A stretch of 64,000 bases of DNA. Source: an uncultured Solibacteraceae bacterium (lineage in GTDB: Bacteria > Acidobacteriota > Terriglobia > 20CM-2-55-15). The notes under the pieces were generated by a model. That model had not been told where the DNA came from. It did no database searches and was given only the letters and a program-made list of their open reading frames with translations. Positions 22,266-45,212 of this stretch are shown piece by piece; the stretch's first letter is position 1, and each line of letters begins with the position of its first letter. Where the stretch lies: assembly GCA_964541075.1 (NCBI GenBank), contig CAZIPZ010000001.1:4425-68424 (forward strand), read 5' to 3'. Both the position numbers and the translations under genes were made by a program.

Positions 22266-22341
22266 CAATAAAGAACAAACAGGCCTTGCTCGGGGACTTC
22301 CGGGTTTCCCGAATTGACTGCTTTACAGGACGGAGAGGCAA

Positions 22342-25300: not shown

Positions 25301-25926
25301 ATCAGCAAAACAATCAGCAAAACAATCAGCAAAACAATCAGCAGGACAATCAACAGGGTCAGAACCAACAGGGCCAGCAGGCCCAGGGCAACCAACAAGG
25401 GCAACGTCCTTCTCAGCAAGGCCAGCCTGGTCAACAGCAAGCCCAGGACGGGCAGCAGGGACAGCCGGGTCAATCCGGAAACGGGCAGGAGAATGCCAGG
25501 GGCCAGCAGGTTGGTCGGAATGGATTCCCATATGGCGGCGCCCGCGCGGGAGTCGAAGCGGGGCAAGGTCCTGACGTCAACGATGCACGGCAATGGCAGC
25601 GCGAATGGGAAGAGCGACTGCGGGAAATCCAGGAGATCCGACAAGCTGTGGGCAAAGATAAGGAACTTGCGGCGGACCTCGACCGAATTATGAACGCTGT
25701 TAGAGGCCAAATGCGCGGTCGGCCAGGAAATCCGGAAGAAATCCAAAGGCTGGCTCAGCAGATTATCGACCCGTTCCGATCGGTTGAACTTGAATTGAGC
25801 CGGGAGCTTCAGCTCTTGATGGCGAAGGAAAATATTCGGTCGGCGCAGGAAGAAGAAATTCCCGAGAGATACAAGAAGCTGGTCGAGGAATATTACAAGC
25901 GTCTGTCGAGTCAGAAGCCGCAATAA
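22342..25926 (+). CDS. Large (1194 aa) membrane-anchored protein with Q/G-rich low-complexity coiled-coil region, last gene of MoxR-vWA cluster
   Basis: Two or three N-terminal TM helices. Poly-Gly tracts (GGGGGGGQQ twice). Long Q/E-rich coiled-coil segments. The QQNNQ tandem repeat falls inside it. Possibly BatD/DUF4175-like, which I cannot verify. Confidence 0.6.
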   Translation: MRPNDELLQKIGIVRSRWKAFLWARGLAWVLGVLAGCVLAAVAIANSPEFPGWAVLGLRIGLLAAVVFTIVRALVIPLRRTPSDTQLARFVEEKNPGLKDRLVSAVEAVKKPGADQSPFVHLLTKDALEHTRHVRFAEQVNKRKFGAFATLSGFFAVALVISLYIASLFFPIGSARLLAGLLKPPDVDTFQLKVAPGDITVPRGSDVVIQAVASGFDPQRAQIQLRYANGDQWEASTMEITPQTLPTFRHTVFNLQESVHYFVEADGHRSTEFTIDVADLPRVEKLDYTYTYPAYAGMAPNKQENATDMVALRGTSVEVQVTASQELSGGRLVFSDGKTVPLQPNGEKMAMGKLVVDRSATFRIELTNKDGQRYLSLEEYTMDALDDQKPIVEFTKPGRDYKATSVEEVFTELRAEDDFGVHQLELYFSVNGGAEQKKSLFSNKGEAPKEISGGHTFFLEEYDLKPGDFITYYGKAVDSRQPSNTVSTDIYFVEVRPFGHEYYQGQQGGGGGGGQQDDSTEALSKRQKDIIAATFKLMRDKDKFKTKEWTDNIHAVGASQSKLAEQTETLMARLGRRGLTAQNKKFTDLSENLKLAIEQMGPASEQLQKEQAEAAMPFEQKALQYLMRAEALFTEIQVTMGQQGGGGGGGGRQNAEDLADLFELELDQSKNQYETLQRGEMSQNPQELEDSLRKLKELAERQQKLMERRAQQQASGGSGGGGDQSQMQELQRETERLARQLEKLSRENNNRQMADVSRALQQAARNMQQQAQGGSGNSQQQQQAAQQAMEQLQRAQRLLNQGRGGNVDERMAQLQQQMKNLKEKQGRIADQTEKLASQEKPGPQPSPEGKEKIDEIGQQKQQVASELKNMTEELDSLGNNPENRDAANKARSAANAIKSSRLQDKMSQSGQFLENGFYNYASRAERDIEKTLGDIEKQINQAASAANDSDEKRTQNALNQTSETIRRLESMQRRLQQYNQQNNQQNNQQNNQQNNQQNNQQDNQQGQNQQGQQAQGNQQGQRPSQQGQPGQQQAQDGQQGQPGQSGNGQENARGQQVGRNGFPYGGARAGVEAGQGPDVNDARQWQREWEERLREIQEIRQAVGKDKELAADLDRIMNAVRGQMRGRPGNPEEIQRLAQQIIDPFRSVELELSRELQLLMAKENIRSAQEEEIPERYKKLVEEYYKRLSSQKPQ
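25279..25350 (+). repeat. In-frame 12-bp tandem repeat (CAGCAAAACAAT x5 perfect plus degenerate flanking copies) encoding (QQNN)n
   Basis: Read directly from the sequence at 25279-25338 (perfect copies) and 25339-25350 (degenerate copy). Lies inside the 1194-aa ORF. Confidence 0.9.
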
Positions 25927-27271: not shown

Positions 27272-27622
27272 ATGTTTGGCCTGAACGGCAGACAGCTCTT
27301 CATTCTTCTGCTGTTTGTCGCCCTGCTGTTCGCGGGCTCGCAGTACATCCCGCCCTATTTCAATGCATTCCAGTTCAATGATTTCGTTCGGCAGGAAGTG
27401 AAGTATGCCGTCAGCGCACGCAAGACCACGGATGATGTTCGAAATGCAATCGTCAAGAAGGCGGCGGAGTTGAATCTTCCCATCACTCCGAAGGATGTTC
27501 GCATCATACGCCGTGGGCCTTCATTTACAGTTGAGCTGGAATACCGCGTGCCCGTCGATATTAAGGTCTACAAACAAGACCTGGTTTTCCGCGCGTCCGA
27601 GTCCGGAGAAGTCTTTGAATAA
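27272..27622 (+). CDS. Hypothetical small membrane protein (116 aa)
   Basis: Single N-terminal TM helix. Stop overlaps the moeA start. Confidence 0.45.
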   Translation: MFGLNGRQLFILLLFVALLFAGSQYIPPYFNAFQFNDFVRQEVKYAVSARKTTDDVRNAIVKKAAELNLPITPKDVRIIRRGPSFTVELEYRVPVDIKVYKQDLVFRASESGEVFE

Positions 27623-28836
27623 TGCTGACCATTGATCGTGGTCTTGAACTGGTAATGTCTACCGCGAAGGGCAGCGCCCGCCTTGGAAGAATGCCATCCG
27701 AGCGTGTGGCCCTTGCGGAATCTTCGGGTCGGATCCTTCGAGAAGACATTATTGCAGACGCGGATTCGCCTCGGTTTGACAAAGCAATACGGGATGGGTA
27801 TGCAGTTCGATTCCAAGACGTGACCAATGTTCCGATTGTGCTTTCCGTTAACGGTGAGTCCAGAGCAGGCGCTGGCTCCAACGTCGCTGTTGAAAGCGGA
27901 TATTGCTGTGAGATTATGACGGGCGCACCGCTTCCAGCCGGAGCTAATGCGGTGGTCATGGTCGAACACACCGAAAGGGTCGCTCACGACGCCGTCCGGA
28001 TTATGAAATCCGTACGAGAGAACGAAGGCCTCTTGCGCAGGGGAGCCGAGGCGCGCGAAGGGTCCTGCCTGCTCAACTCCGGAGTTCGAATAGGCCTGGC
28101 TGATCTGGGTCTGCTCGCGGGCGCCGGTAAACACCAGGTTTACGTTTCAAGCAAGCCTCGCGTTGCGATCATCGCGACGGGAGACGAACTGGTCGAAGTG
28201 AATCAAACGCCGCAATCCGGTCAGATCCGCAACAGCAACAGTTACACGCTTTTCGCGCAGGCTGCTTCGGCTGGAGCGGCGCCCTTCCTGCTTGGCGTCG
28301 CGCGAGACGACCTCGCGGATTTGCGCGAGAAGATCAAGAAAGGTCTCGATTACGACATATTGCTCGTCTCCGGCGGCGTTTCGATGGGCAAGTACGATCT
28401 GGTGGAAAGTGTTTTTGCTGAGTTCGGCGTGCGCGTGCTGTTCGACAAAATCGCGATGAAACCAGGAAAACCGACGGTGTTTGGTCACCGCGGCGAGACG
28501 TTCGTGTTTGGATTGCCGGGAAATCCTGTTTCAACGATAGTTTCGTTTCACATGTTCGTTCGTCCCCTTATTCTGTTTTTGCTGCACTCACAGAACACCG
28601 AGCCGAGAGTTCTGAGTGCAACGCTCGACGCACCGGCGAAGTGCGACCCTGCGCGCGCTGCACTTGTTCCGGCGAACGTCCGGTTTCAAGATGGGCGATA
28701 TCACATCGTTCCCGCAACATGGAAGGGTTCATCAGACCTCGTCGGTTTGGCGAGGGCGAACGCTTTGATCGTTATTCCCTGCAGAGATGGCGCCCTTCAG
28801 CCAGGCGACACGGCGGAATTTCTGGAGTTGGACTGA
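27622..28836 (+). CDS. moeA: Molybdopterin molybdenumtransferase MoeA
   Basis: MoeA blocks: VAIIATGDELVEV, GQIRNSNSY, ILLVSGGVSMGKYD, IAMKPGKPTVFG. Confidence 0.9.
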   Translation: MLTIDRGLELVMSTAKGSARLGRMPSERVALAESSGRILREDIIADADSPRFDKAIRDGYAVRFQDVTNVPIVLSVNGESRAGAGSNVAVESGYCCEIMTGAPLPAGANAVVMVEHTERVAHDAVRIMKSVRENEGLLRRGAEAREGSCLLNSGVRIGLADLGLLAGAGKHQVYVSSKPRVAIIATGDELVEVNQTPQSGQIRNSNSYTLFAQAASAGAAPFLLGVARDDLADLREKIKKGLDYDILLVSGGVSMGKYDLVESVFAEFGVRVLFDKIAMKPGKPTVFGHRGETFVFGLPGNPVSTIVSFHMFVRPLILFLLHSQNTEPRVLSATLDAPAKCDPARAALVPANVRFQDGRYHIVPATWKGSSDLVGLARANALIVIPCRDGALQPGDTAEFLELD

Positions 28837-29328
28837 ATGCCAAGAAGAAAAATTCAACTAACCCATGTTGATAAAGAAGGCCGAAGCCGCATGGTGGATG
28901 TTACGCAAAAGAATGAGAGCGTTCGTATCGCAAAGGCCGAGGCGTTTGTTGAAATGTCCGGTCCAACGGTGGCAATGGTTCGGAATCGCGCTATGCCGAA
29001 GGGTGACCCCTTGGAAGTCGCGCGCGTGGCGGGAATTCAGGCGGGAAAGAGAACAGCAGACTTGATCCCATTGTGCCATCCTCTGGTCTTGACGCACCTC
29101 GACGTGTCAGTCGAGATCATCGATTCGGGCGCAAAAATCGAAGCTACAGCTAAAAGCAAGGCGGAAACCGGCGTTGAAATGGAAGCTCTGACTGCGGCAT
29201 CGGTGGCTGCGTTGACGCTTTATGATATGTGCAAAGCGGTTGAAAAGGGAATCTCCATAGGCCCCGTTCGTCTAGTTGAAAAAATTGGCGGCAAGAGCGG
29301 CCACTGGCTGAGGCACCGGGCCAAGTAG
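28837..29328 (+). CDS. moaC: Cyclic pyranopterin monophosphate synthase MoaC
   Basis: LTHVD..G...MVDV and DLIPLCHPL motifs. 163 aa. Confidence 0.9.
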
Positions 29329-29428
29329 GAGCTAGACGGCCCGCAGGGCCGATTGGGTCGCTAATCACAGCATTCGGCGGCGGAGATTTGATATTGTTGA
29401 ATGTGGACCGCCGAACAATACTCCAATC

Positions 29429-29929
29429 TTGAAGGAGAAGATTCTGCACCGTGCACTTGTACTCACGATCAGTGATTCCGCCTCAATGGGCAACCGTGAG
29501 GATCTTTCAGGGCCGGAAGCAAAGAAGATCCTGGCAGAGTTCGGTTTTGAAGTTGTCGCAATTGAGGTTTTGCCGGACGACCGTGCCGCGATAGAATCGC
29601 GGCTTCGCCGCGCATGTGACGAAAGCCTTCACTTGGTCGTCACTTCTGGCGGTACAGGACTTTCGCCTCGCGATGTCACGCCGGAGGCGACCCGAGCTGT
29701 ACTGGAAAAGGATGCTCCGGGTATTGCGGAGTTGATGCGTCTGGAGAGCTTGAAAGTGACGCCGCGGGCTGCGCTGTCGCGGGCGATTGCGGGCGTGAGG
29801 CAATCGACGCTGATCATCAATTTGCCCGGAAGCGTCAAAGGCGTGCGAGAATGCTTAGCGGCGGTGCGACCCATCTTGGGCCATGCCCTGGACACAATCG
29901 CGCAATCGTCGTTAGGATGCGGAGAGTAA
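29429..29929 (+). CDS. Molybdenum cofactor biosynthesis protein MogA/MoaB family
   Basis: ALVLTISDSAS...LVVTSGGTGLSPRDVTPEAT (GGTG motif). Confidence 0.85.
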   Translation: MKEKILHRALVLTISDSASMGNREDLSGPEAKKILAEFGFEVVAIEVLPDDRAAIESRLRRACDESLHLVVTSGGTGLSPRDVTPEATRAVLEKDAPGIAELMRLESLKVTPRAALSRAIAGVRQSTLIINLPGSVKGVRECLAAVRPILGHALDTIAQSSLGCGE

Positions 29930-29930
29930 A

Positions 29931-30299
29931 ATGAGCGAAACCGTTCTGACTGCCTACATACCAATATTCCTTTTTATGGGGTTGGCTTTCGTGTTCCCCA
30001 TTGTGACGCTCCTCATCGCCAAGTTGATCCGCCCAGCAACTGGCGGAGAAGGAAAACTGATGCCGTACGAGTGCGGCGTCGATCCCGAATCCGATGCCCG
30101 GCAACGCTATGCCATTCGCTACTATGTTGTGGCTATTCTGTTCGTGATCTTCGATGTTGAAACTGTTTTTCTCTTTCCGTGGGCGATTATTTACAAGCAG
30201 CTCGCACTCTTCGGCCTGATAGAGATGCTGATATTCCTTGGCATTCTGATTGTTGGATATGTTTGGATTATTAAGAAGGGCGCTCTTGATTGGGCGTGA
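29931..30299 (+). CDS. nuoA: NADH-quinone oxidoreductase subunit A
   Basis: Three TM helices. YECGVDP and FDVETVFLFPWA motifs. Confidence 0.93.
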   Translation: MSETVLTAYIPIFLFMGLAFVFPIVTLLIAKLIRPATGGEGKLMPYECGVDPESDARQRYAIRYYVVAILFVIFDVETVFLFPWAIIYKQLALFGLIEMLIFLGILIVGYVWIIKKGALDWA

Positions 30300-30322
30300 G
30301 TCGGACATACTGGAGATAATTC

Positions 30323-30895
30323 ATGTCTGCTTGGATTGAAGATCGTTTCGAAAAGAACATCATCACGACAACGGTGGACGCCGTCTTCAATTGGGCTCGG
30401 AAGTCCGCATTGTGGCCCATGACGTTCGGTCTTGCTTGTTGCGCCATCGAGATGATGGCCACAGGGTCCTCCCGTTTCGATATGGACAGGTTCGGCGCCG
30501 GAATCTTCAGGCCGAGTCCTCGTCAATCCGACCTGATCATCGTTGCCGGAACGGTGACGCTGAAGATGGCTCCCATCGTCCGCCGCGTTTACGACCAAAT
30601 GCCCGACCCCAAGTGGGTTATTTCGATGGGCGCCTGCGCGAACGTGGGTGGTCCGTTTGATACATATTCCGTGCTACAAGGGGTCGATCACGTCATTCCA
30701 GTCGACGTTTACGTGCCGGGTTGCCCGCCCCGCCCTGAAGCGCTGCTCTACGGAGTGATGCGGCTCCAGGACAAAATCGACCGGATGACCATTGCAAAGA
30801 GACCTACAAACGTTCGTTTCGACGACGTGAAGAACGATCCACGAATTACACAAGCTGCTAAAGAAGAAATGGATCGTATCGGAATGAAGATCTAA
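30323..30895 (+). CDS. nuoB: NADH-quinone oxidoreductase subunit B
   Basis: N2-cluster cysteines [18 protein letters not shown] and GCPPRPEAL. Confidence 0.95.
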
Positions 30896-30951
30896 TCGGC
30901 GGAATCTTGACTGTGCGGCGTGGCCGCATAGTAAGGTTTCGCGGATTATTG

Positions 30952-31929
30952 ATGTCCTTCATTGATCAACTCCGCGCCAAGATCCGCCAGCAGGGCCCCA
31001 TTCCATTTTCCGACTACATGGAAGAGGTCCTGCATCACTACTACTCACAAGAAAGAAATCCTATAGGCGCCGGAGGCGATTACTACACATCCTCGGACCT
31101 GGATCCCATTTTCGGACGCCTGCTTGCAAAGCAATTCCAGGAATGGGCGTCGGAAATAAGCCCTTTCATGCTGATCGAACTGGGAGCCGGCAGGGGGCTT
31201 CTGGCGCGAGATATTCTCGAGACGCAAGTCTTTCCTTACAAGATTTTGGAGCGGAGCGAATCGATGCGTCGAAAGCAGCAGTCGCTGCTCCGCGATTTCA
31301 ATGTCGAGTGGATAGACGAGTTGCCTGCTGGCGTCACTGGCTGCATATTTTCCAATGAATTTTTCGACGTGCTGCCGGTGCATCGATATGTGCGTCGTGG
31401 CATCGAAATGAAGGAAATCTACGTCACGGAGAACTTCGAAGAGATCGAAGCCGAACCAAGAACTCCATTTGATGCGCCTCTCGCAGACGGCCAGATCGCA
31501 GACGTTAGTATTGAGGCCCGAAACTGGATTCGCCGGATAGCCGCATCATTGGATCGAGGCTTTCACCTTGCGATCGACTACGGATATCTCGCCCCGGAGT
31601 TCTTCGCGCACACTCGCGGCACACTGATGTGCTATTGGCGGCATCAGGCGGTTGAAGATCCCTACGTCCGGATTGGCGAGCAAGATATGACCGCGCACGT
31701 CAATTTCACGGATCTTATGGAAGAGGGAAGCAAGCACTCCCTTGCGACTGTGCGATTCACGACGCAAATGGAATATTTGATCAGTCTTGGCCTACTTGAT
31801 GAAGTTCAGAATTTGTCTACCCAAAACACCGCCGCTTCAATCGCCCGATTGCTCAGGATCAAGAAACTGATTCTGCCGCCGGGCATGGGAGAACGTTTTA
31901 AGGTTTTGGTACAGAAAAAGAACTCCTGA
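30952..31929 (+). CDS. MidA-family SAM-dependent methyltransferase (DUF185; NDUFAF7-like)
   Basis: IPFSDYMEEVLHHYYSQ...GGDYYTSSDLDPIFGRLLAKQFQEW...ELGAGRGLLARDIL matches DUF185/MidA blocks. ATG 30952 preferred over the in-frame TTG 30907. Sits between nuoB and the ligase. Confidence 0.7.
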   Translation: MSFIDQLRAKIRQQGPIPFSDYMEEVLHHYYSQERNPIGAGGDYYTSSDLDPIFGRLLAKQFQEWASEISPFMLIELGAGRGLLARDILETQVFPYKILERSESMRRKQQSLLRDFNVEWIDELPAGVTGCIFSNEFFDVLPVHRYVRRGIEMKEIYVTENFEEIEAEPRTPFDAPLADGQIADVSIEARNWIRRIAASLDRGFHLAIDYGYLAPEFFAHTRGTLMCYWRHQAVEDPYVRIGEQDMTAHVNFTDLMEEGSKHSLATVRFTTQMEYLISLGLLDEVQNLSTQNTAASIARLLRIKKLILPPGMGERFKVLVQKKNS

Positions 31930-33533
31930 TGCACTTGTTTGCGGAGACTGCCGAATCGATTTCGAAGACGACTTCCAAGCTCAAAAAGATCGCCTTTCTC
32001 AGTACGTATATACGTAATCTTGCGGATGAAGATTTGCGAGCCGCCGTGGTGTTTTTCACGGGTCGTCCGTTCCCGTTGTCCGATTCCAGAACGCTGAACG
32101 TGGGATGGTCCGCTCTGGCAAGCGCGATTCAGCAGATATCCCAGGCGTCTGAACAGGAAATGCACCGCGCATATCTTGAGCGCGGCGACCTGGGCGAAGT
32201 TGCGGAGGCGCTGCTTCCGCAAAGGTCGTCCGTGCAACTCTCTCCCGCAAAGGTTCAGGCGAAGTTCGGCGAGTTGGTGAAGGTGTCGGGGGCGAACAAC
32301 AAGCTCAGCGTCGTAACGGATCTCCTTCGTTCGTTGACACCGATCGAGTCGAAGTACGCGATTAAAATCATCACCGGTGATCTGCGTATTGGCCTAAAGG
32401 AAAACTCGGTGGAAGAAGGCATCGCAAAAGCCTTCGAAAGGCCTACGGATTCCGTCAGGCGGGCGAATATGGTTCTCGGCGATATTGGCGAAACTGCTGT
32501 GCTGGCGCTGCATGGCGATTTAATCAATACCTCTCTTAAGCTATTTCGCCCGGTGAAGTTCATGCTTGCTACTCCAGGGGATACGGAAGAGGAAATTTTT
32601 GCGACCTTTACCGCGCCTTTCTATGTCGAGGACAAGTACGACGGCGTTCGCGGGCAATTGCACGTGGACAACGGGCGGAGCGCCCTCTATTCGCGGACTC
32701 TGGACGACATATCGTTTCAGTTTCCTGAAATTACGGAAGCCGGGCAAGACTGGAATGCATCATTGATTGCTGATGGTGAGGTCGTCGGATTCAAGGAAGG
32801 CAGGGTTCTTCCTTTTTCGCTGTTGCAAAAACGGCTTGGGAGAAAAAAGCCCCCTTCAGAGCTGCTTGACGAGATTCCAGTCGCGCTGATGGTTTTCGAC
32901 ATATTGCACCTTGAAGGTCGCACATTGATTGACGAGCCATTATCCGAACGAAAGGAAATTATTGAGAGTATTCCATGGCCCACCCCTTTGCATGCGGCGC
33001 CATTCATACTCATCGATGAACGTGTCCAGCTTGCACCGTTTTTTGAGCAAGCCGCACTGCGCCGGAATGAGGGCCTGATGCTGAAGGATGCCAGTTCGCT
33101 TTACTTTCCAGGCAAGCGTGGCATGAACTGGTTGAAATGGAAGAAGGCCCTCGCAACTCTCGATGTCGTTGTAACTGGCGTCGAATTCGGCCACGGCCGG
33201 CGGCGAGACGTCTTGTCCGATTTCACATTTGCTGTGCAACAGGACGGCGAACTCTTCAACATCGGAAAGGCATACTCCGGTCTGACTGACCGTGAGATTG
33301 CCGAACTTACGGATTACTTCAAGCGCCATACCGTTCAGGATTTCGGTAGATTTCGGCTTGTGGAGCCTCGTGTCGTGATTGAAGTCGCGTTTAACGGAAT
33401 TCAGAAAAGCAGCCGGCACGAAAGCGGCTACGCACTCCGATTTCCAAGAATCATTCGCATTCGAAACGATAAGAGTGTTCAGGACATCGATACCCTGGAA
33501 AACGTAAAGAAGATTCACAACGAAGCGGGATGA
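31929..33533 (+). CDS. ATP-dependent DNA ligase (Lig1-like three-domain)
   Basis: N-terminal DNA-binding domain. Adenylation motif I EDKYDGVR. Motifs EGLMLK and NWLKWK. TGATG overlap with the MidA stop. Confidence 0.85.
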   Translation: MHLFAETAESISKTTSKLKKIAFLSTYIRNLADEDLRAAVVFFTGRPFPLSDSRTLNVGWSALASAIQQISQASEQEMHRAYLERGDLGEVAEALLPQRSSVQLSPAKVQAKFGELVKVSGANNKLSVVTDLLRSLTPIESKYAIKIITGDLRIGLKENSVEEGIAKAFERPTDSVRRANMVLGDIGETAVLALHGDLINTSLKLFRPVKFMLATPGDTEEEIFATFTAPFYVEDKYDGVRGQLHVDNGRSALYSRTLDDISFQFPEITEAGQDWNASLIADGEVVGFKEGRVLPFSLLQKRLGRKKPPSELLDEIPVALMVFDILHLEGRTLIDEPLSERKEIIESIPWPTPLHAAPFILIDERVQLAPFFEQAALRRNEGLMLKDASSLYFPGKRGMNWLKWKKALATLDVVVTGVEFGHGRRRDVLSDFTFAVQQDGELFNIGKAYSGLTDREIAELTDYFKRHTVQDFGRFRLVEPRVVIEVAFNGIQKSSRHESGYALRFPRIIRIRNDKSVQDIDTLENVKKIHNEAG

Positions 33534-34276
33534 TAATGCATCGCGTCACAGGAGATGGCCCGCCGATCGTGTTTATTCATGGTGCGGCCGCGTCTGCACG
33601 TTTGTTCGGCGCGCAATTCCAGGCCTTCCGCAACCACGCCCGGTGCTATTTCATTAACCTTCCTGGGCATGGCGGCGTTCCTGCGCATTCAGACTTGAGT
33701 ATCGAAGGTTACGCATCATTCCTTGGAGAGTTCCTGAATACCCTGAATGAACCTGCCGCCTTAGTCGGACACTCGATGGGCGGCGCGGTTGCGATTCTGA
33801 CGGCTTTTCAGAATCCGGAGTTGGTGCGCGGTCTGGCGCTTACTGGCTCTGGCTGCCGCCTGCCGGTTTCAGATGAGCTGTTGAGCGCGCTCGAATACGA
33901 TTACTCGAGGGCATTGGATCTCGTTGTGAGCGGGTCCTACACTAAACATGCGGACCCGCGCCTGCTTGAAAGGGCTCGCGCCGAGATTGTACAGACGCCT
34001 CCAGATGTTGTCCGGGCCGACTTCATCACCTGTAGTCGGTTTGATGGATGCGATAAGGCGTCCAAGATCAAGACTCCAACAGTGATCATTTGCGGAGAGC
34101 AAGACCTAATGACGCCTTTGCCTCTTTCCAAACATTTGAATGCGCTGATTTCTGGTTCGCGACTGATTATGATCCCGGGCGGCAGCCACATGGTCATGGT
34201 GGAGTTTGTCGATACGTTCGACGCCATCCTGATCGACGCGCATCTGAATTCCTGGTCCCGGCGCTCCGAAGTTTAG
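33530..34276 (+). CDS. Alpha/beta-fold hydrolase
   Basis: IVFIHGAAAS and nucleophile elbow GHSMGG. 4-bp overlap with the ligase stop. Confidence 0.8.
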   Translation: MIMHRVTGDGPPIVFIHGAAASARLFGAQFQAFRNHARCYFINLPGHGGVPAHSDLSIEGYASFLGEFLNTLNEPAALVGHSMGGAVAILTAFQNPELVRGLALTGSGCRLPVSDELLSALEYDYSRALDLVVSGSYTKHADPRLLERARAEIVQTPPDVVRADFITCSRFDGCDKASKIKTPTVIICGEQDLMTPLPLSKHLNALISGSRLIMIPGGSHMVMVEFVDTFDAILIDAHLNSWSRRSEV

Positions 34277-34443
34277 AAATCCTTCGAGAGCACCTGAGTC
34301 CCAGTGGTAATGCAGTTCTCCTTTGCGTTAAGATGCTACGTTACGCACGTAGTGCGCCGTTGACACTGTTGCATCGATGTGGTTGAATCCACGTCTTTGT
34401 GAATTAGCGCGCATCAACTCTTGTCCTCCCGAGATTCTTAAAA

Positions 34444-35187
34444 GTGGCAGACGAAAAGGATAACCAGCAGACTGGAAAGCCGGCTGAGCCGGAGAAACCG
34501 ACACCTGCAGCCCAGGGTTCTGGAGAACCTAAGGCGGCTGCTCCCAAACCGCCTCCACCCCCCCCGGCAAAGCCTGCGGCGTCGCCTGGAGGGCATGCTG
34601 CCCCGCCTAAGCCCAAAGGGCCGGCGCCGGAACCGTGGTCGCATCCCCTTGTGGACGCTGTTAAGGAAAAGTTTGGGGATCAGTTTGTCAAAGCGTATAG
34701 CTTCCTCGGGCAGAACCAGATTGAAGTGAAAAAGGACCGAATCCTGGAGATCATGACGTTTCTCCGCGATAGCGAAATGTGCCTGTTCAATTACCTCGCC
34801 GATGAGACCGCTGTACATTGGCCGAAGGAAGAGAAGTTTGAGATCGTCTACATTCTGTATTCGTTTTCCAAGAACGAACACCTGCGTGTGAAAGCCCGAA
34901 TCAAGGAATGGGAAGAGATCGATAGCGTCGTTCCCGTCTGGACGACTGCGGATTGGTTGGAGCGCGAGATTTATGACATGTTCGGAGTGCGCTACGTGAA
35001 CCATCCGGATCTGACGCGGATCCTTCTACCGGACGAGTGGGAAGGTTATCCGTTGCGCAAGGACTACAACATTCGCCTACAGGACGTGGAGTGGGTGCGC
35101 AAGCACCTGGGAATCGATTCAGGTCAGAAGTATTACGTCGGAGAAGCACGACACGAAACCCCGGACTATTTGACGCCGAACGATTAA
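34444..35187 (+). CDS. nuoC: NADH-quinone oxidoreductase subunit C with Pro/Lys/Ala-rich N-terminal extension
   Basis: Conserved NuoC core ([11 protein letters not shown]...[12 protein letters not shown]...GYPLRKDY), preceded by about 60 aa of low complexity ([15 protein letters not shown]...). GTG start. Confidence 0.88.
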
Positions 35188-35214
35188 CGAAGTCTTTCGC
35201 GCGGTGACGCGCAA

Positions 35215-36339
35215 TTGAAGGAAATGTCCACAAAAGAAACATTATTCGATGCGAACGAGTTAACTGTCAGCATGGGGCCGCAGCACCCGTCGACACACGG
35301 GGTGCTTCAGGTGAAATTGAAGCTGGACGGTGAGCGGGTCATCGATCTGCGGTGCGTCATTGGCTATTTACATCGCGGTGTGGAGAAGCTGGGCGAAGCC
35401 CAGACCTATGGCCAGTTTGTTCCCACCTTGGACCGCATGGATTACATCGCAGCGGTATCTAACTGCGTTGGGTATTGCGAAACAGTAGAGAAGCTTCTTG
35501 GAGTGACGGTTCCGCCGCGGACGCAGTACATCCGAACAATCATGCTTGAGCTGAACAGGATCACCAGCCACTTGCTTTGGTTGGGAACGCATGCGCTCGA
35601 TATCGGAGCAATGACTGTGTTTTTGTATGCGTTCCGCGAACGCGAAGAGATTCTAAAGATTTTTGAGAATTACTGCGGTGCGCGCCTGACGACTCATATG
35701 TTTCGCATCGGCGGATCGCAATACGAACTCTATGATGGGTTTCAGGATCAGGTCCGCACCTTCATCAAGGATTTTCCCAAGAAAGTTGACGAATACGAAA
35801 CGCTGCTGACGGAAAACCGGATCTGGATCGGTAGAACCCGGGGCGTCGGCGTCATTTCTGGTAAAGATGCCATCGACCTTGGATTGACGGGCCCCTCCCT
35901 CCGAGGTTCGGGAGTGGAGTGGGATCTTCGAAAGGCCAAGCCCTACGCTGCCTACGCAGATATGCAGTTTGATATTCCGGTGGGGGATCAGGGTGATACG
36001 TACGATCGGTATATGGTGCGCATCGAAGAGATGCGGCAGTCTGCTCGGATCATCGGTCAGGCGGTGGACAAGATTCCAGATGGACCGATCATGGCCAAAC
36101 TTTCGAAGATCATCAAGCCGCCAGTGGGAGATATCTACCACTCAATTGAATCGCCCAAGGGCGAACTTGGCTATTACATAGTGAGTGATGGCAGTACGAG
36201 CCCATATCGGGCGCGTGTGAGGCCGCCGTCATTCGTTAATCTGCAAGCGCTCCGCAAGATGGCCGTAGGCCATATGGTTGCCGATGTCGTCGCCATCATC
36301 GGAACTCTCGACATCGTTCTGGGCGAGATTGATAGATGA
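35215..36339 (+). CDS. nuoD: NADH-quinone oxidoreductase subunit D
   Basis: [14 protein letters not shown] and the canonical 49-kDa subunit length. Confidence 0.95.
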
Positions 36340-36458
36340 GTCAATTGTCGAGTGAGGACAGTGAATTCAGGACGCTAAGTCCGATCCGGGCGGGGCTCTT
36401 TCAGCGTTTCTGAGATTTGGTGTCCGGGAACTGGGATGTTTGTCTGACTATGGATTTT

Positions 36459-37484
36459 ATAATCGATTACGTTCTGATCCCTTTCATCAAGATTCTCGTG
36501 GTGTTTCTTGCTCTTTCTGGCGTCATCGCCTATTTGACGCTGCTTGAGCGGAAAGTCATCGCCTTCATGCAGGTCCGGCTTGGGCCTATGCGCGTGGGAC
36601 CTTATGGGTTGCTTCAGCCGATCGCTGACGGTTTGAAACTGATGCTGAAAGAGGACATCGTACCCGCTCGGGCCGATCGTTTGATTTTCACTCTTGCGCC
36701 TATCATCACACTGATACCCGCGTTTATCGTTTTCGCCGTCATCCCATTTGGCCCAACGATCAACATCATGGGCCGACAAATCGGCCTCTACATCACGGAC
36801 CTGAACATTGGCGTTCTTTATGTGCTCGCGATCTCTTCAGTAGGCATTCTCGGCATCATTCTTGGCGGATGGGCTTCAAACAGCAAGTACCCATTGTTAG
36901 GTGCATTGCGCTCGGCGGCGCAAATGGTGAGCTACGAAGTCGCCCTCGGCTTCTCGATCATGGGAGTGCTGATGATTTCGGAAACGCTCAGCCTGGTGCA
37001 AATCGTGGAGGCCCAAAAGAGCAGCGGGTACTGGTATGTATTTCTTCAGCCTTTGGCGTTCTTCCTTTTCTTTATCTGTGGAGTTGCTGAGACTAACCGT
37101 GCGCCCTTCGACTTGCCTGAAGCGGAATCCGAACTCGTGGCAGGTTTTCACACGGAATACAGCGGATTTCGTTTCTCACTTTTCTTTCTGGCTGAATACG
37201 CGAGCATGATTGTGGTTTCTGCCATGGCTGTCACCCTTTTTTGGGGCGGCTGGCTGCGACCGTTTCCCAATGTGGCGGCGCTGGGATTTCTGGACCTCAT
37301 TCCTCCCGTACTCTGGTTCGCGTTGAAGGTCCTGGTATTTCTGTATTTTTATCTCTGGTTCCGAGCAAGCTGGCCGCGTTATCGCTACGATCAACTGATG
37401 AAGGTGGGTTGGCAGTGGCTCCTTCCACTTGCGATGGCAAACGTTATCGTGACCGCGATTTTGGTCTTGGTTATGGGGAATTAG
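36459..37484 (+). CDS. nuoH: NADH-quinone oxidoreductase subunit H
   Basis: LERKVIAFMQVRLGPMRVGPYGLLQPIADGLKL. ATG 36459 preferred over the track's 36417. Confidence 0.93.
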   Translation: MIDYVLIPFIKILVVFLALSGVIAYLTLLERKVIAFMQVRLGPMRVGPYGLLQPIADGLKLMLKEDIVPARADRLIFTLAPIITLIPAFIVFAVIPFGPTINIMGRQIGLYITDLNIGVLYVLAISSVGILGIILGGWASNSKYPLLGALRSAAQMVSYEVALGFSIMGVLMISETLSLVQIVEAQKSSGYWYVFLQPLAFFLFFICGVAETNRAPFDLPEAESELVAGFHTEYSGFRFSLFFLAEYASMIVVSAMAVTLFWGGWLRPFPNVAALGFLDLIPPVLWFALKVLVFLYFYLWFRASWPRYRYDQLMKVGWQWLLPLAMANVIVTAILVLVMGN

Positions 37485-37487
37485 GCA

Positions 37488-37958
37488 ATGAAAGTCAAAC
37501 GTCCGGAACTGACCTTACTGAAGAGAATCTTTTTGGTCGACTTGATCAAGGGGCTTCTTCTGACGTTCGGATATCAACGTCCTTCGCGGAATTATGCGGA
37601 ACAGTACCCGAAAGAGCGACCCAAGGTGGCGGAGCGTTTCCGTGGCGCCCCGCGGCTGAATTGCGATCCTGAGACCGGTGAGACGCTTTGCATTGCATGC
37701 AACCTTTGCGCCCTGGCGTGTCCTGAGCATTGCATTGAGGTCGGATGGGAACGAGATCCTGCCGGCAAGAAGGCGCTCACGACCTATACCTTTGATATTT
37801 CGCGCTGCATGTTTTGCGGTTTGTGCGAGGACGCTTGTCCGACGCCATGTCTGGAATTGACGCAAGATTTCGAACTTAGTCTGTACGGCCGCCGGGACAT
37901 GAAATGGGATCGCAAGAAACTCGAGGCGGGTAATCAGCCGATCGTGTACACAAGGTAA
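37488..37958 (+). CDS. nuoI: NADH-quinone oxidoreductase subunit I
   Basis: Two 4Fe-4S ferredoxin motifs (CIACNLCALACP and CMFCGLCEDACP). Confidence 0.95.
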   Translation: MKVKRPELTLLKRIFLVDLIKGLLLTFGYQRPSRNYAEQYPKERPKVAERFRGAPRLNCDPETGETLCIACNLCALACPEHCIEVGWERDPAGKKALTTYTFDISRCMFCGLCEDACPTPCLELTQDFELSLYGRRDMKWDRKKLEAGNQPIVYTR

Positions 37959-37964
37959 CACTTG

Positions 37965-38486
37965 ATGACGCTTGAACAGATCCTTTTTTACGTTTTCGGA
38001 ACCATCGCGATCGTTTCGTCGATCTTGCTCATTACCCGTCACAATGTGGTTCACAGTGCAATGTTCTTGGCTGCGACTCTTCTTTCCGTGGCCGGCATTT
38101 TTCTGACGTTGCACGCGGAATTCCTGGCAGGCGTCCAGGTGATCGTGTATGTCGGCGGGATTCTCGTCTTGTTTGTTTTCGTAATCATGCTCATTGCGGT
38201 TGAGCGTACCGCCTTTGAGCGTCAGTACAATCGCCAATGGACTATAGCCCTGATTACGTCCGGTATTTTGATTCTGGAAATCGGTTACGGAATTTACCGC
38301 GGCAAGGATTCATTTGTGCTTCCTGAGGCAGTTAGCGCACCGGCCAATGTTGCCGGTAATTCGCAATTGGTCGGCACGGCGCTCTACACGACTTACCTGT
38401 TGCCTTTTGAGATCGCTTCTATTCTTTTGCTGGTTGCGGTCGTAGGTGCTGTTGTTCTTGCAAAGCGGAAGACGGAAGCAGAGTAA
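37965..38486 (+). CDS. nuoJ: NADH-quinone oxidoreductase subunit J
   Basis: Five TM helices and NuoJ-like sequence (VVHSAMFLAATLLSVAGIF...VQVIVYVGGI). Confidence 0.9.
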   Translation: MTLEQILFYVFGTIAIVSSILLITRHNVVHSAMFLAATLLSVAGIFLTLHAEFLAGVQVIVYVGGILVLFVFVIMLIAVERTAFERQYNRQWTIALITSGILILEIGYGIYRGKDSFVLPEAVSAPANVAGNSQLVGTALYTTYLLPFEIASILLLVAVVGAVVLAKRKTEAE

Positions 38487-38503
38487 ACAGCGATTAGATA
38501 AAA

Positions 38504-38806
38504 ATGGCTCCAACACATCACTATTTGCTACTCGGTGCAGCTTTGTTCACCATCGGCGTCATCGGTGTATTGACCCGTAGAAACATCATGATCATCTTGA
38601 TGTCCATTGAATTGATGATGAACGCCGTGAACATTAACCTGATCGCTTTCTCCGGTCACCTGCAACAAGTTGGCGGCCAGGTTTTCGCGATTTTCGTTAT
38701 TACGGTCGCGGCGGCTGAGGCCGCGGTCGGCCTCGGGATTGTGATTGCGATGTTTAAGAACAAAGAAACGATGAACATCAACGAAATCGACCTGATGAAG
38801 TGGTAA
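38504..38806 (+). CDS. nuoK: NADH-quinone oxidoreductase subunit K
   Basis: 100 aa with three TM helices. [23 protein letters not shown]. Confidence 0.93.
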
Positions 38807-38813
38807 GCAGGAC

Positions 38814-40952
38814 ATGGATTTTCTAAATCTAATTTGGCTCATTCCGCTTTTTCCGGCCATCGGATTCACAATTAATGGGCTCTTTGGAAAAAGGCTTCCA
38901 AAGACTGCTGTGGCCGTTGTGGCCGCCGGTGCGGTTCTCGTCTCCTTTATTTTCGCGGCTGGTGCGGTCTATCAGTTGGCGCAGCACGGCCCGGAAGAAC
39001 GGTCGCATACCGTAAAGGTGTACCAGTGGATTGATGCCGGTCCGGCCCGAATCGCGAATGGGGAAGTGGCGCGTTTCATCGCAGACTGGGGCTTCCTGCT
39101 CGATCCGCTTTCCTCGGTCATGGTCCTGGTTGTCACTGGCATTGGATTTCTGATTCACGTGTATTCAATCGGATACATGTACGAAGAGGATGGATTCTAC
39201 CGATTCTTCGCTTACCTCAACCTGTTCATGTTTTCGATGCTCACACTCATTCTCGGGAACAACTACCTGATGATGTTCGTGGGTTGGGAAGGTGTCGGTC
39301 TGTGTTCATATCTTCTGATCGGATACTACTTCCTCAAGAAGAGCGCGGGCGATGCGGCGAAAAAAGCTTTTGTGGTGAACCGCGTGGGAGACTGGGGTTT
39401 TTCCATCGGAATCATGCTGATCTTCGCGACCTTCGGGACAATTGAATTCACGCAGGTGGGCGAAGCGGTGCGCGAGGGTGCAGCCGCAGGACACTTCCGC
39501 GTGAGCGACCCGTTGTTTATTGGAATCGCCCTGGCCTTGTTCGTTGGAGCGACGGGAAAATCGGCCCAAATTCCCCTATATGTCTGGTTGCCCGACGCGA
39601 TGGAAGGTCCGACGCCTGTCAGCGCTCTGATCCACGCCGCCACAATGGTGACCGCGGGCGTTTACATGGTTTCGCGAAGCAATTTCATCTTTCAAATGGC
39701 GCCGGAAGCCCTAGCTGTCGTCGCAGTCATCGGAGCTCTCACAGCCCTTTTCGCGGCGTCGATCGGGCTGGTGCAAAACGACATCAAGCGTGTGCTCGCA
39801 TATTCAACCGTCAGCCAGCTCGGCTATATGTTTTTAGCTCTAGGCGTCGGCGCCTTCGCCGCCGGCGTCTTTCATTTGATGACGCACGCGTTTTTCAAAG
39901 CTCTGTTGTTCTTGGGATCAGGGAGTGTGATTCACGCATTGCATCATGAGCAGGACATGCGAAACATGGGCGGTCTCAGGAGCAAGATTCCGATTACTTT
40001 CGCCACCATGGCTATCGGCACAATCGCCATCGCCGGCGCCCCTCCCCTGGCCGGATTTTTTTCGAAGGATGAAATCCTTTGGCGAGCTTTTTCCAGCGAG
40101 CACGGACATATCGTGTTGTGGGCTCTTGGCGTGATTGTGGCAGGCATGACGTCGTTCTACATGTTCCGTCTGTTGTTCATGACGTTCTTCGGCGAATACC
40201 GCGGCGGTCAGGCGCATCATCATGATGACCATACGGTTCAGCACGCGTCGCACGACGCCCACAATAAAGCGGGGGCGCATCACGGCGAACACCACGGAGC
40301 GCATGCGATCCACGAATCTCCTGCCGTCATGACATTTCCTTTGATAGCGCTGGCCGTAGGATCGGTTGTGGCGGGCTGGATCGGGCTCCCCGCCTGGCTC
40401 AGCTCAACGAACGTGTTTGAACATTGGCTTGAGCCGGTCTTTGAACCTGTCGTTCCAGTCACGGCTGAAGCCCATCACTATAGCCATGCTTTCGAAATGG
40501 GCCTGGCTGGCTTTTCCGTGCTGGTTGCATTTATCGGCTTTTTCCTGGCCTATACGACGTATTACAAGAAAAGCGACCGCGCCGAGCGTGTTTCGGCTCA
40601 ATTCAAGGGTCTCTATCAGGCGTTGCTGAATAAATGGTACATCGACGAACTCTATGACGCGTTGTTTGTAAATCGCTCCAAAGACGCCGGAAGGACGCTA
40701 TGGAGGTTTGATGCTAAGGTTGTTGACGGCGCGGTTAACGGTTCGGCCTGGGCGACTCTAAGGAGCGCCGTTGGGTCCAATTGGTGGGATCGTTGGATCG
40801 TTGATGGACTTGTCCGATTTATCGGCGGCTTTATCAAAACCTTAAGCTGGCCTGTTCGCCTCATTCAAACCGGCTATGTGCAGAATTATGCGCTGGTGAT
40901 GATTCTGGGCGTTCTGGTTTTCATTGGTTACGTTCTGTGGGGAACTCCATAG
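38814..40952 (+). CDS. nuoL: NADH-quinone oxidoreductase subunit L
   Basis: 712 aa antiporter-like subunit with the NuoL C-terminal extension. WEGVGLCSYLLIGYY motif. Confidence 0.93.
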   Translation: MDFLNLIWLIPLFPAIGFTINGLFGKRLPKTAVAVVAAGAVLVSFIFAAGAVYQLAQHGPEERSHTVKVYQWIDAGPARIANGEVARFIADWGFLLDPLSSVMVLVVTGIGFLIHVYSIGYMYEEDGFYRFFAYLNLFMFSMLTLILGNNYLMMFVGWEGVGLCSYLLIGYYFLKKSAGDAAKKAFVVNRVGDWGFSIGIMLIFATFGTIEFTQVGEAVREGAAAGHFRVSDPLFIGIALALFVGATGKSAQIPLYVWLPDAMEGPTPVSALIHAATMVTAGVYMVSRSNFIFQMAPEALAVVAVIGALTALFAASIGLVQNDIKRVLAYSTVSQLGYMFLALGVGAFAAGVFHLMTHAFFKALLFLGSGSVIHALHHEQDMRNMGGLRSKIPITFATMAIGTIAIAGAPPLAGFFSKDEILWRAFSSEHGHIVLWALGVIVAGMTSFYMFRLLFMTFFGEYRGGQAHHHDDHTVQHASHDAHNKAGAHHGEHHGAHAIHESPAVMTFPLIALAVGSVVAGWIGLPAWLSSTNVFEHWLEPVFEPVVPVTAEAHHYSHAFEMGLAGFSVLVAFIGFFLAYTTYYKKSDRAERVSAQFKGLYQALLNKWYIDELYDALFVNRSKDAGRTLWRFDAKVVDGAVNGSAWATLRSAVGSNWWDRWIVDGLVRFIGGFIKTLSWPVRLIQTGYVQNYALVMILGVLVFIGYVLWGTP

Positions 40953-41032
40953 GAGATTTCGAAGTTTGAACTTTTCCACTGCGAATCGACGGACCGAGCT
41001 GCGATTCGTGTGATTTGACTGGAGCCTGAAAA

Positions 41033-42619
41033 ATGGACTTTTTCCGTCAACATATCCTGAGCATTGTCGCCTTCTGGCCGCTGGCCGGGATGATCGTTCT
41101 CCTTTTTTTGAACAAGGAGAACAAGCATCTGATTCGCCTATGGTCGAATATCGTCATCTTCAGCGGTTTCGTCGTGTCACTGCCTCTTTGGTTCTGGTTT
41201 GACTTCGAGAAATCCGATGAAATGCAATTTGTAGATCGATTCCAGTGGATCCAGACACTCGGCGCCCAGTATCACGTAGGCATCGATGGCGTTTCGCTGT
41301 TGCTGATCATGCTCACAACAGTGCTCGGACCACTTGCAATGCTTTCCTCATGGAGTGCAATCGAAATTCGCCTGAAGGAATACTACGCATTTCTGCTGAT
41401 GCTTCAGACCGGCATGATCGGCGTCTTCATGTCGCTGGACTTCTTCCTTTTTTACGTGTTCTGGGAAGTCATGCTCGTGCCGATGTACTTTCTCATTGGT
41501 GTTTGGGGCGGACCGCGGAAGCTCTATGCAGCGATCAAATTTTTTCTCTACACCTTGGTGGGGTCGGTTCTCCTGCTATTGGGCATCCTGGCGCTGTATT
41601 TCATATATCCATCGATCGCGTCTGAACATCCTGAAGTTGCTCAGCAGTTCGGCCCAGGGAACACATTCAATGTTTTGGCATTTCATGCCATCGGCTCCTA
41701 CCTGCCTTTCGACTTCCAATATTGGGTTTTCCTGGCATTTTTTGTGGGTTTTGCCATCAAGGTGCCGATGTTTCCATTCCATACCTGGTTGCCGGATGCA
41801 CACGTGGAAGCGCCCACAGCGGGTTCAGTCATTCTGGCCGGCGTTCTCTTGAAAATGGGAACATACGGCTTCATACGCTTCAGCCTTCCCATATTGCCGG
41901 AAGGGACGAAATACTTTGTCCCGCTAATGATCACGCTTGCCGTAATCTCGATCATCTATGGCGCGCTGGTTGCCATGATGCAGCCGGACATGAAGAAATT
42001 GGTGGCGTATTCCTCTGTTAGCCACATGGGTTTCGTGATGCTCGGTATGTTCGCATTGAATCCGAACGGACTGAACGGCAGCATCATCCAGCAGATCAAT
42101 CACGGAGTGTCGACCGGCGCTCTCTTTTTGATCGTCGGAATTATCTACGAGCGACGGCACACTCGTGAAATATCCCAGTTCGGCGGCCTATCCAGCGTGA
42201 TGCCGATTTATGCGATCGTATTCCTCATCATGACGATGTCTTCAATAGGCTTGCCGCTTCTGAATGGGTTTATCGGCGAGTTTGCGATCATGATGGGCGC
42301 GCTGCAGGAGAATCTGTGGTGGGCGGTCGCTGGTGGTTCGGGAATTGTTCTCGGCGCCGCGTACATGTTGTGGCTCTATCAGCGCACGATGTTTGGAAAG
42401 ATTGAGAATCCGGCGAATGAAAAACTGCTGGACATGAACCTTCGGGAACTGGTGACCCTGGTCCCGCTGATCATTCTGGCGTTTTGGATCGGCCTTTATC
42501 CAGCGCCTTTCTTCAAAGCGCTCGATAAGCCCGTGAACAAGATCGTCCAAAAAATCCGCCCTGACTTCTTCCAGCCCGCACCTCCACTGAACGCTCAGGT
42601 TGAGGGAGAAAAGCGCTAA
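41033..42619 (+). CDS. nuoM: NADH-quinone oxidoreductase subunit M
   Basis: 528 aa antiporter-like subunit. FHTWLPDAHVEAPTAGSVILAGVLLKMG. Confidence 0.93.
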   Translation: MDFFRQHILSIVAFWPLAGMIVLLFLNKENKHLIRLWSNIVIFSGFVVSLPLWFWFDFEKSDEMQFVDRFQWIQTLGAQYHVGIDGVSLLLIMLTTVLGPLAMLSSWSAIEIRLKEYYAFLLMLQTGMIGVFMSLDFFLFYVFWEVMLVPMYFLIGVWGGPRKLYAAIKFFLYTLVGSVLLLLGILALYFIYPSIASEHPEVAQQFGPGNTFNVLAFHAIGSYLPFDFQYWVFLAFFVGFAIKVPMFPFHTWLPDAHVEAPTAGSVILAGVLLKMGTYGFIRFSLPILPEGTKYFVPLMITLAVISIIYGALVAMMQPDMKKLVAYSSVSHMGFVMLGMFALNPNGLNGSIIQQINHGVSTGALFLIVGIIYERRHTREISQFGGLSSVMPIYAIVFLIMTMSSIGLPLLNGFIGEFAIMMGALQENLWWAVAGGSGIVLGAAYMLWLYQRTMFGKIENPANEKLLDMNLRELVTLVPLIILAFWIGLYPAPFFKALDKPVNKIVQKIRPDFFQPAPPLNAQVEGEKR

Positions 42620-44957: not shown

Positions 44958-45212
44958 ATGAACAATAGAAAAGACGATCATCGCCGCTCGATGAGAGAAC
45001 TTGGAGGTCTGTTGAGCGCTGGGATGGTGTTTCCGGTTTCCATCGGAATCGGATATGCACTTGGATACTATCTCGACCGCTGGCTGGGGACGAAATTTTT
45101 CACCATCGTCTTCCTTTTGTTCGGCATTGCTGCTGGTTTCGTCAGTTTTTTTCGAACAATTGCCGCGTTTGACCGCACGCAGTCCAACGGACCTTCCAAG
45201 ACGAAAGAATGA
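44958..45212 (+). CDS. AtpZ/AtpI-family small membrane protein (F0F1-ATPase-associated)
   Basis: 84 aa with two TM helices, immediately upstream of atpI-atpB-atpE. Resembles the ATPase_gene1 family. Confidence 0.55.
   Translation: MNNRKDDHRRSMRELGGLLSAGMVFPVSIGIGYALGYYLDRWLGTKFFTIVFLLFGIAAGFVSFFRTIAAFDRTQSNGPSKTKE

Follow-up and report, generated by a model that had tools for sequence, protein, structure and literature searches.

Why should the gene of a MidA/NDUFAF7-family methyltransferase lie directly behind nuoB, among the genes of the NADH:quinone oxidoreductase (NDH-1, complex I)? The question is raised by a stretch of 64,000 nucleotides (nt) from a Terriglobia (Acidobacteriota) metagenome-assembled genome (MAG), which is called the window in this report. 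The window genes from 27272 to 44061 are all on the plus strand. An earlier, sequence-only reading had placed a MidA-like methyltransferase, an ATP-dependent DNA ligase and an alpha/beta hydrolase between nuoB and nuoC, and Pfam confirms all three on the plus strand. From the sequences and gene orders compared, the window MidA is probably a protein arginine methyltransferase, encoded on the nuoA-nuoB transcript, whose target would be the GYLHRGVEK arginine of NuoD, dimethylated while the quinone module is being assembled.

The midA gene (30952-31929) encodes an S-adenosylmethionine (SAM)-dependent methyltransferase of COG1565 with 325 residues. The longest open reading frame (ORF) at this site has 340 residues and scores 159.5 bits with PF02636 (Methyltransf_28; cut-off 23.3 bits, E = 1.3e-46), so the Pfam check proposed for it was positive. 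The start codon assumed for that ORF, TTG 30907, has to be replaced: the true start is ATG 30952 because the identical NCBI protein has 325 residues and the homologues align from this position. The spacing between nuoB and midA is therefore 56 nt and the two genes are not translationally coupled. NCBIfam holds no model for the MidA/COG1565 family. In a phmmer search of the PDB sequences the sole matches were Burkholderia 4F3N/4G67 (4e-35), Rhodopseudomonas palustris 1ZKD (3e-23) and Dictyostelium MidA 5ZTZ (5e-11).

The motifs IELGAGRG (SAM motif I), GDYYTS, NEFFDVLPVH, DYGY and QDMTAHVNF of the window MidA align with 4F3N, 1ZKD and 5ZTZ, and the patterns GDxxT, ELGAGRG, NEFFDxLPVH, DYGY and QDxTAHVNF are invariant across 20 members of the acidobacterial clade. 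An AlphaFold2 model of the window MidA was built from 20 clade sequences (predicted local distance difference test, pLDDT, 81.8). With this model Foldseek ranked only COG1565/MidA structures at the top (4F3N, E = 1.6e-24; 1ZKD, 6e-20; 5ZU0, 4e-19) with template-modelling (TM) scores of 0.71-0.74; other methyltransferases follow at about 1e-7, twelve orders of magnitude worse. Judged by its motifs and predicted fold, the 325-residue protein is a true member of the MidA/COG1565 family, a known family in a new context.

The closest matches in both sequence and structure are the bacterial COG1565 proteins of Burkholderia thailandensis (4F3N/4G67) and R. palustris (1ZKD; TM 0.71-0.73 for these structures). 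These are proteobacterial, whereas the window MidA is acidobacterial and about 25-29% identical to them. With NDUFAF7 and Dictyostelium MidA it shares the PF02636 family, the fold (TM 0.74 to 5ZU0/5ZTZ), SAM motif I and the family motifs; furthermore, its gene is linked to complex I genes and lies near a nuoD whose product contains HRGxEK, the presumed target motif. It is only about 20% identical to Dictyostelium MidA, however, and shorter (325 versus about 400 residues), with the regulatory insertions of the core loop probably partly reduced. Unlike NDUFAF7, it is bacterial and encoded together with nuoA-nuoB, and the complex in question comes from an 11-gene NDH-1 cluster without nuoEFG.

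Alphaproteobacterial nuo operons also contain ORFs that do not encode subunits, e.g. urf7 of Rhodobacter capsulatus (PMC9036352). By annotation, which is the basis of this comparison rather than PF02636 membership, urf7 is a SAM-dependent methyltransferase gene; it thus resembles midA as an extra methyltransferase gene in a bacterial nuo cluster with a proposed role in assembly. Its position in the operon differs and the evidence in PMC9036352 is purely in silico. A further comparable bacterial case is the enzyme, whichever it may be, that methylates Arg-65 in Nqo4 of Paracoccus denitrificans.

For the conservation of the locus, the window was compared with 14 related loci (L001-L011 and L168-L170) whose MidA proteins show 52-69% identity. 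All 15 loci have the same order of genes for serine hydroxymethyltransferase (SHMT, minus strand), a small ORF, moeA, moaC, mog, nuoA, nuoB and midA. Thus, the survey of related nuo loci suggested by the sequence-only reading finds nuoA-nuoB-midA in 14/14 relatives, or 15/15 with the window. Beyond midA the loci vary: the ligase is present in 10 of the 15, the hydrolase in four, and nuoC-N follows downstream in nine. Ligase and hydrolase both follow midA in the window and L168, the ligase only in L001-L005 and L007-L009, the hydrolase only in L169 and L170, and neither gene in L006 and L010. Within the stretches of sequence fetched, L001, L002, L169 and L170 have unrelated genes in place of nuoC-N. 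The nuoB-midA pair consequently persists without the ligase (L006, L010, L169, L170), without the hydrolase and without downstream nuoC-N (L001, L002, L169, L170). The constant partner of nuoA-nuoB is midA; ligase, hydrolase and nuoC-N are variable.

Intergenic gaps were measured in 12 loci (the window and L001-L011). The gap between mog and nuoA is 0-16 nt in 11 of them and 92 nt in L003, which is a frameshifted assembly. Between nuoB and midA there are 0-56 nt (11/12 loci) and between midA and the ligase -4 to +32 nt (most loci). The last inserted gene is always separated from nuoC by at least 163 nt.

Linkage of midA to NDH-1 genes is not confined to Acidobacteriota. A genome collection was scanned with a MidA profile and the neighbours were checked by tblastn; metagenomes were scanned with a cyanobacterial MidA profile. 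In Nitrospiria, four of five loci (L126, L164, L165 and L167) show the order midA-nuoABCDEFG, and L166 is without the link. The gap between midA and nuoA is about 7-140 nt in this group and the upstream genes differ among the loci. In L126, which came from the metagenome scan, midA lies 7 nt upstream of nuoA-B-C-D-E-F. The genes nuoC and nuoD are separate in L126, L164 and L165; L167 (8252-10006) has a fused NuoCD of 584 residues directly after midA-nuoA-nuoB, and a different upstream gene.

In cyanobacteria, the gene immediately preceding midA, in the same orientation, is ndhH in 15 of about 29 loci for which sufficient flanking sequence is available. Three of these (L050, L062, L066) were found in the genome collection and the metagenome scan added 12 contigs, with identities down to 58% for MidA and 85% for NdhH. 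The spacing is about 50-100 nt in some loci and 0.5-1.4 kb, without an ORF of at least 90 residues, in several others (the loci looked at for both kinds of spacing include L050, 5592-6795; L062, 6562-7931; L107, L101 and L105).

Linkage of midA with NDH-1 genes thus arose or was kept in three phyla (Acidobacteriota, Nitrospirota and Cyanobacteria), in the three orders nuoB-midA, midA-nuoA and ndhH-midA. The MidA groups are mutually about 40-45% identical in a star-like manner, and the three linked groups do not form one sub-clade. By a rough estimate, a random gene abuts an NDH-1 gene with a probability far below 1% per genome, so that three linked lineages among about a dozen sampled would be an unlikely coincidence. 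The idea that the location of a MidA gene within a nuo cluster links it to a role in complex I assembly is therefore supported, by the 15/15 nuoB-midA pairs as well as by the Nitrospiria and cyanobacterial linkages. In the literature searched, no published description of a MidA-NDH-1 gene linkage was found.

Two further candidates for relationships were not adopted. A verrucomicrobial MAG (L083, 7965-9529) has a lone nuoA-like gene (134 residues, 41% identity) converging on the 3' end of midA, with no other nuo gene adjacent; this is too weak to count as linkage. Acidobacterial and Nitrospiria MidA are adjacent in the leaf order of a neighbour-joining tree, and no special kinship is claimed as the identities between the groups are uniformly 40-45%.

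Other MidA genes have other surroundings. Homologues with about 38% identity occur in Candidatus Methanoperedens and related archaeal contigs (L018, L019, L023, L026, L029, L030, L035, L052), with a gene for an HhH-GPD base-excision glycosylase 300-1800 nt downstream on the same strand and no fpo genes detected nearby. A second acidobacterial type, about 42% identical to the window MidA (L024, L033, L034, L039, L047, L048, L063, L065, L082 and related loci), has the order 3-hydroxyacyl-CoA dehydrogenase, Macro-domain protein, 93-residue ORF, MidA and a convergent gene for an M1-peptidase/TPR protein.

The presumed target is present in all linked systems. NuoD of the window carries GYLHRGVEK (codon of the proposed target arginine at 35374-35376), and all linked NuoD/NdhH proteins carry GYLHRG(V/M)EK. 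The site of iron-sulfur cluster N2 is carried by NuoB. The arginine corresponds to Arg-85 of the bovine and Arg-65 of the P. denitrificans protein, and this equivalent residue is symmetrically dimethylated in bovine, human, Pichia and P. denitrificans complex I; Thermus has a threonine at this position (PMC3750175). It is needed for cluster N2 (PMC8042128). In human cells NDUFAF7 is the methylase of NDUFS2 and is required for an early assembly step; a NuoD homologue is the only demonstrated substrate of the family, shown only for eukaryotic enzymes (PMC3829151). Bacterial COG1565 proteins are suggested to methylate the NuoD homologue on bioinformatic and structural grounds, according to what PMC9006661 relates of Shahul Hameed 2018. 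In that account and in the introduction of PMC12455994, the role and substrate specificity of bacterial MidA are described as so far inferred in silico only.

According to the proposed mechanism, MidA would be expressed from the nuoA-nuoB transcript and would use SAM for the symmetric dimethylation of the arginine in the GYLHRGVEK motif of NuoD, a residue beside cluster N2 of NuoB. The methylation would take place before or during docking of NuoD onto NuoB, much as NDUFAF7 acts on mitochondrial NDUFS2, and may influence assembly or cluster N2. Co-production with NuoA and NuoB would tie the supply of MidA to the assembly of the quinone-reduction module. The nuoC-N genes would most likely be driven additionally or separately by their own conserved promoter. 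Ligase and hydrolase would be passengers of the midA transcription unit with no role in the complex.

Several observations weigh against methylation of NuoD by the window MidA. To our knowledge, the arginine of HRGxEK is near-universal in NuoD and its presence is weakly discriminating; likewise, we know of no modification, binding or transcript observed for the window MidA or any non-proteobacterial MidA. In the acidobacterial clade midA stays with nuoA/nuoB and not with nuoD, the gene of the supposed substrate. Tight packing within this clade is by itself weak evidence for a function because the molybdenum-cofactor genes, the ligase and the hydrolase are packed equally tightly. About half of the cyanobacterial loci are without the ndhH link. 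The distant MidA genes (35-43% identity) are mostly without an NDH-1 neighbour; such a neighbour is missing in 68 of 72 distant genome loci and in 44 of 45 metagenome loci of non-cyanobacterial type. Finally, the equivalent arginine of E. coli is present and unmodified (PMC3750175). As regards a functional association of MidA with complex I, the gene neighbourhoods in three phyla agree with it and most MidA loci have no such neighbourhood. The recurrent linkage supports, without proving, that MidA may modify NuoD in many bacteria.

The alternative that survives best is that midA is a passenger by descent: a single ancestor of the clade would have acquired it behind nuoB, and the enzyme would have another substrate and no tie to NDH-1. 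The window region is indeed a long, functionally mixed string of co-directional genes, which on this view are unrelated housekeeping genes, and in which moeA-moaC-mog are joined to nuoA as closely as noted above and ligase and hydrolase are coupled to midA. As all 15 loci are syntenic from the SHMT gene onward, they count as one evolutionary event, and most MidA genes of other lineages have unrelated neighbours. A single acquisition does not account, however, for the link recurring in other orders (midA-nuoA in Nitrospiria and ndhH-midA in cyanobacteria), three linkages among about a dozen lineages being very unlikely by chance on the rough estimate given. Moreover, nuoB-midA stayed together through rearrangements in which ligase, hydrolase and nuoC-N were lost, and the substrate of the eukaryotic orthologue is the NuoD homologue (PMC3829151). 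We consider the passenger explanation unlikely.

It is less likely still that MidA methylates a different component or residue of NDH-1, e.g. of NuoB or NuoA, instead of the HRG arginine of NuoD. Such a substrate would agree with midA following nuoA/nuoB also in loci without nuoC-N behind it (L001, L002, L169, L170) and abutting nuoA in Nitrospiria; the specificity of bacterial MidA, inferred in silico only according to the introduction of PMC12455994, leaves room for it. In cyanobacteria, on the other hand, it is precisely the gene of the NuoD homologue, ndhH, that is linked, and this choice of neighbour is informative because ndh genes are scattered in these genomes. A NuoD homologue is also the only substrate demonstrated for the family (PMC3829151), and the same arginine is dimethylated in Nqo4 of P. 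denitrificans (PMC3750175).

That MidA acts together with the coupled ligase in a DNA-related process (e.g. methylation of DNA or of a repair protein), with the nuo neighbourhood irrelevant, is very improbable: the close midA-ligase junction in the window (TGATG) and most relatives, the HhH-GPD glycosylase near MidA in 8 Methanoperedens loci, the Macro-domain protein at 9 loci of other Acidobacteriota, a protein with the AP_endonuc_2 fold at 8 loci of Nitrospirota (this fold being mostly that of sugar isomerases, which counts against the idea) and a report that Wolbachia MidA, when produced in E. coli, methylates DNA weakly and without a sequence motif, called preliminary by its own authors (PMC12455994), stand against nuoB-midA pairs that persist without a ligase in L006, L010, L169 and L170 and against the lack of a ligase adjoining midA in any other lineage among the loci scanned, three Puia loci having a ligase-like gene only 4-6 kb away on the opposite strand.

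It is conceivable, though we would put it at somewhat less than even, that the dimethylation by MidA of the arginine close to N2 in NuoD/NdhH is old and widespread in NDH-1-type complexes and not a speciality of Proteobacteria and mitochondria. It would then cover 11-subunit complexes without NuoEFG (Acidobacteriota), the canonical complex I found in Nitrospiria and, in cyanobacteria, the photosynthetic NDH-1, and by extension might include the chloroplast NDH; already solved structures of cyanobacterial NDH-1 would contain an unrecognised modification. The linkage in three phyla and three orders provides comparative-genomic support for the role inferred for bacterial MidA, extends it beyond Proteobacteria and makes it directly testable. 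If the role of MidA is confirmed, bacteria could serve as a system of simple genetics in which the effect of the methylation on assembly is told apart from redox tuning at N2, a question also posed for mitochondrial complex I (PMC8042128).

The region between hydrolase and nuoC (167 nt, 34277-34443) bears on how these genes are transcribed. It contains a sigma-70-like promoter motif on the plus strand (34360-34388) consisting of TTGACA (34360-34365), a 17-nt spacer and TG-n-TTGAAT (34380-34388). Alignment of the intergenic regions shows a near-identical block, CGTTGACA-N17-TGGTTGAATCCACGTCTTTGT, just before nuoC and once per locus in the window, L003-L008 and L168; L010 has a variant, so that the promoter-like block is present in every clade locus where nuoC follows. 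In the window the conserved block spans 34360-34400. A scan for consensus promoters and terminators gave nothing above the shuffled expectation and no site in the 167-nt gap; the scanner missed the nuoC motif because its -10 hexamer has no A at position 2. As this non-coding block is conserved among genomes whose proteins are 60-90% identical, a functional promoter can be argued for, and the alignment argues for a predicted sigma-70-like promoter of nuoC-N.

No terminator-like hairpin was found after the window hydrolase (folding z = 0.09), and read-through from the hydrolase into nuoC-N is therefore possible. Two transcription units are likely from these features, one from the small ORF through moeA-moaC-mog-nuoA-nuoB-midA and the ligase to the hydrolase and the other comprising nuoC-N. 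The three genes do interrupt the nuo cluster as the sequence-only reading had it, but the promoter-like motif before nuoC speaks against a single interrupted operon, as does the finding that at least four relatives have no nuoC-N behind the block within the sequence fetched. An internal promoter and terminator that would isolate the three genes were not seen. The promoter-like site lies downstream of the hydrolase, and the three genes are not isolated from nuoA-nuoB.

A second conserved non-coding block, common to L006-L008, is found at 34306-34345 of the window (GTGGTAATGCAGTTCTCCTTTGCGTTA..AT); it contains TGCGT-N14-ACGCA and may be a binding site of a regulator. In L005 a perfect 17-bp hairpin (10640-10685; -35 kcal/mol, z = -8) lies just behind the ligase, ahead of the nuoC promoter motif; it lacks a T-run and could be a terminator or a repeat element.

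The ligase (31929-33533, 534 residues) comprises a DNA-binding, an adenylation and an OB domain (PF04675, DNA_ligase_A_N, E = 2.9e-31; PF01068, _M, 9.4e-42; PF04679, _C, 2.7e-13) and passes the cut-off of TIGR00574 (297 versus 217.8 bits). Its translation contains all nucleotidyl-transferase motifs, including motif I (KYDGVR, with the KxDG lysine) and motif VI (RFPR). It fits no named NCBIfam equivalog: PRK09247 reaches 368 of 543 bits, TIGR04120 ('cisplatin damage response') 349 of 400 and LigD 140 of 228. The three-domain architecture and the complete set of motifs are those of bacterial Lig1/LigB-type ATP-dependent ligases, but the window ligase stays below the cut-offs of the named subfamilies and is found behind midA in part of the clade, outside the usual neighbourhood of repair genes.

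The claimed coupling of the three genes stands for midA and the ligase, whose stop and ATG overlap by 1 nt (TGATG). For ligase and hydrolase it depends on the start chosen: the two genes overlap by 4 nt (ATGA) if the hydrolase begins at ATG 33530 (248 residues), whereas the NCBI form (246 residues) begins at ATG 33536, leaving a 2-nt gap after the ligase stop. The gene (33530 or 33536-34276) encodes an alpha/beta-fold serine hydrolase. The 248-residue ORF matches Abhydrolase_6 (PF12697, 81.5 bits) and Abhydrolase_1 (PF00561, 77.8 bits) with E values of about 1e-22 and contains the nucleophile elbow GHSMGG (GxSxG). It reaches no NCBIfam equivalog (BioH, 80 versus 207 bits; MenH, 63 versus 209; PcaD, 80 versus 256). 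A tblastn search against L001-L011 had suggested that the hydrolase is unique to the window genome; this is ruled out by orthologues in the same slot of L168, L169 and L170, which were obtained by a homologue search and context look-up. The patchy presence within the clade marks ligase and hydrolase as probable accessory and variable passengers, and it fits the initial remark that neither has an obvious relation to respiration.

Upstream of midA, nuoA (29931-30299; PF00507, E = 9.9e-37), which encodes subunit A of the oxidoreductase, and nuoB (30323-30895; PF01058, E = 5.6e-28; NCBIfam NuoB, 258 bits against a cut-off of 116) form the first part of the nuo cluster. The second part begins with nuoC (34444-35187; PF00329, E = 8e-44, residues 93-211) and nuoD (35215-36339, probable start ATG 35224; PF00346, E = 2.4e-106; TIGR01962, 512 bits against 459). 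It continues with nuoH (36417-37484), nuoI (37488-37958), nuoJ (37962-38486), nuoK (38504-38806), nuoL (38814-40952), nuoM (41033-42619) and nuoN (42619-44061), all assigned by Pfam. Thus, the A-B / C-D-H...N order that had been called canonical is correct, but the cluster is of the 11-gene type (A, B, C, D, H, I, J, K, L, M, N), split by three genes and the promoter-like site: Pfam finds no nuoE, nuoF or nuoG, the genes of the NADH-oxidising module, inside the cluster and none between D and H, and the canonical contiguous 14-gene nuoA-N is not matched. Ahead of its Complex1_30kDa domain, NuoC has an N-terminal Pro/Ala/Lys-rich low-complexity extension of about 70-90 residues (34444-34720). 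The NuoC called in L168 is longer still (312 residues).

A recent horizontal insertion of midA, ligase and hydrolase was considered and rejected because neither GC content nor skew is anomalous (GC stays at 0.51-0.57 in the three genes and in their surroundings, with uniform composition over the region) and the arrangement is kept in relatives. No repeats or tRNA genes were found near the three genes, which also counts against a recent insertion, and Rfam gave zero matches at the gathering threshold over the whole window. Chance ORFs are ruled out by the conservation of the three genes in relatives.

The genes in front of nuoA (27272-29929) are an ORF of 116 residues without a Pfam match (27272-27622) and, identified by Pfam, moeA (27622-28836), moaC (28837-29328) and a mog-like MoCF_biosynth gene (29429-29929) that ends 1 nt before nuoA. 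This pairing of molybdenum-cofactor genes with nuoAB is unusual, and its order is kept in 14/14 relatives. After the nuo cluster, in the region 45209-47938, atpI, atpB and atpE (F0 a and c subunits) stand alone, without other ATP synthase genes, and are followed by a fused ThiS-ThiG gene (334 residues). A nitrogen-regulation cluster (53599-63470) contains two glutamine synthetase genes (53599-54921 and 62061-63470, both on the minus strand), a GlnD-like gene (54907-57435) and a divergent GlnE-like pair (58052-59647, minus strand, and 59771-61999, plus strand). Further upstream in the window, at 12380-25926, there is a Bat/aerotolerance-like cluster (VWA/GATase1-like, TPR, MoxR AAA_3, DUF58, BatA-VWA and DUF4175). 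Its last genes (BatA-VWA and the next large ORF) show synteny to L001 and L002, the only two relatives whose fetched sequence extends to this region.

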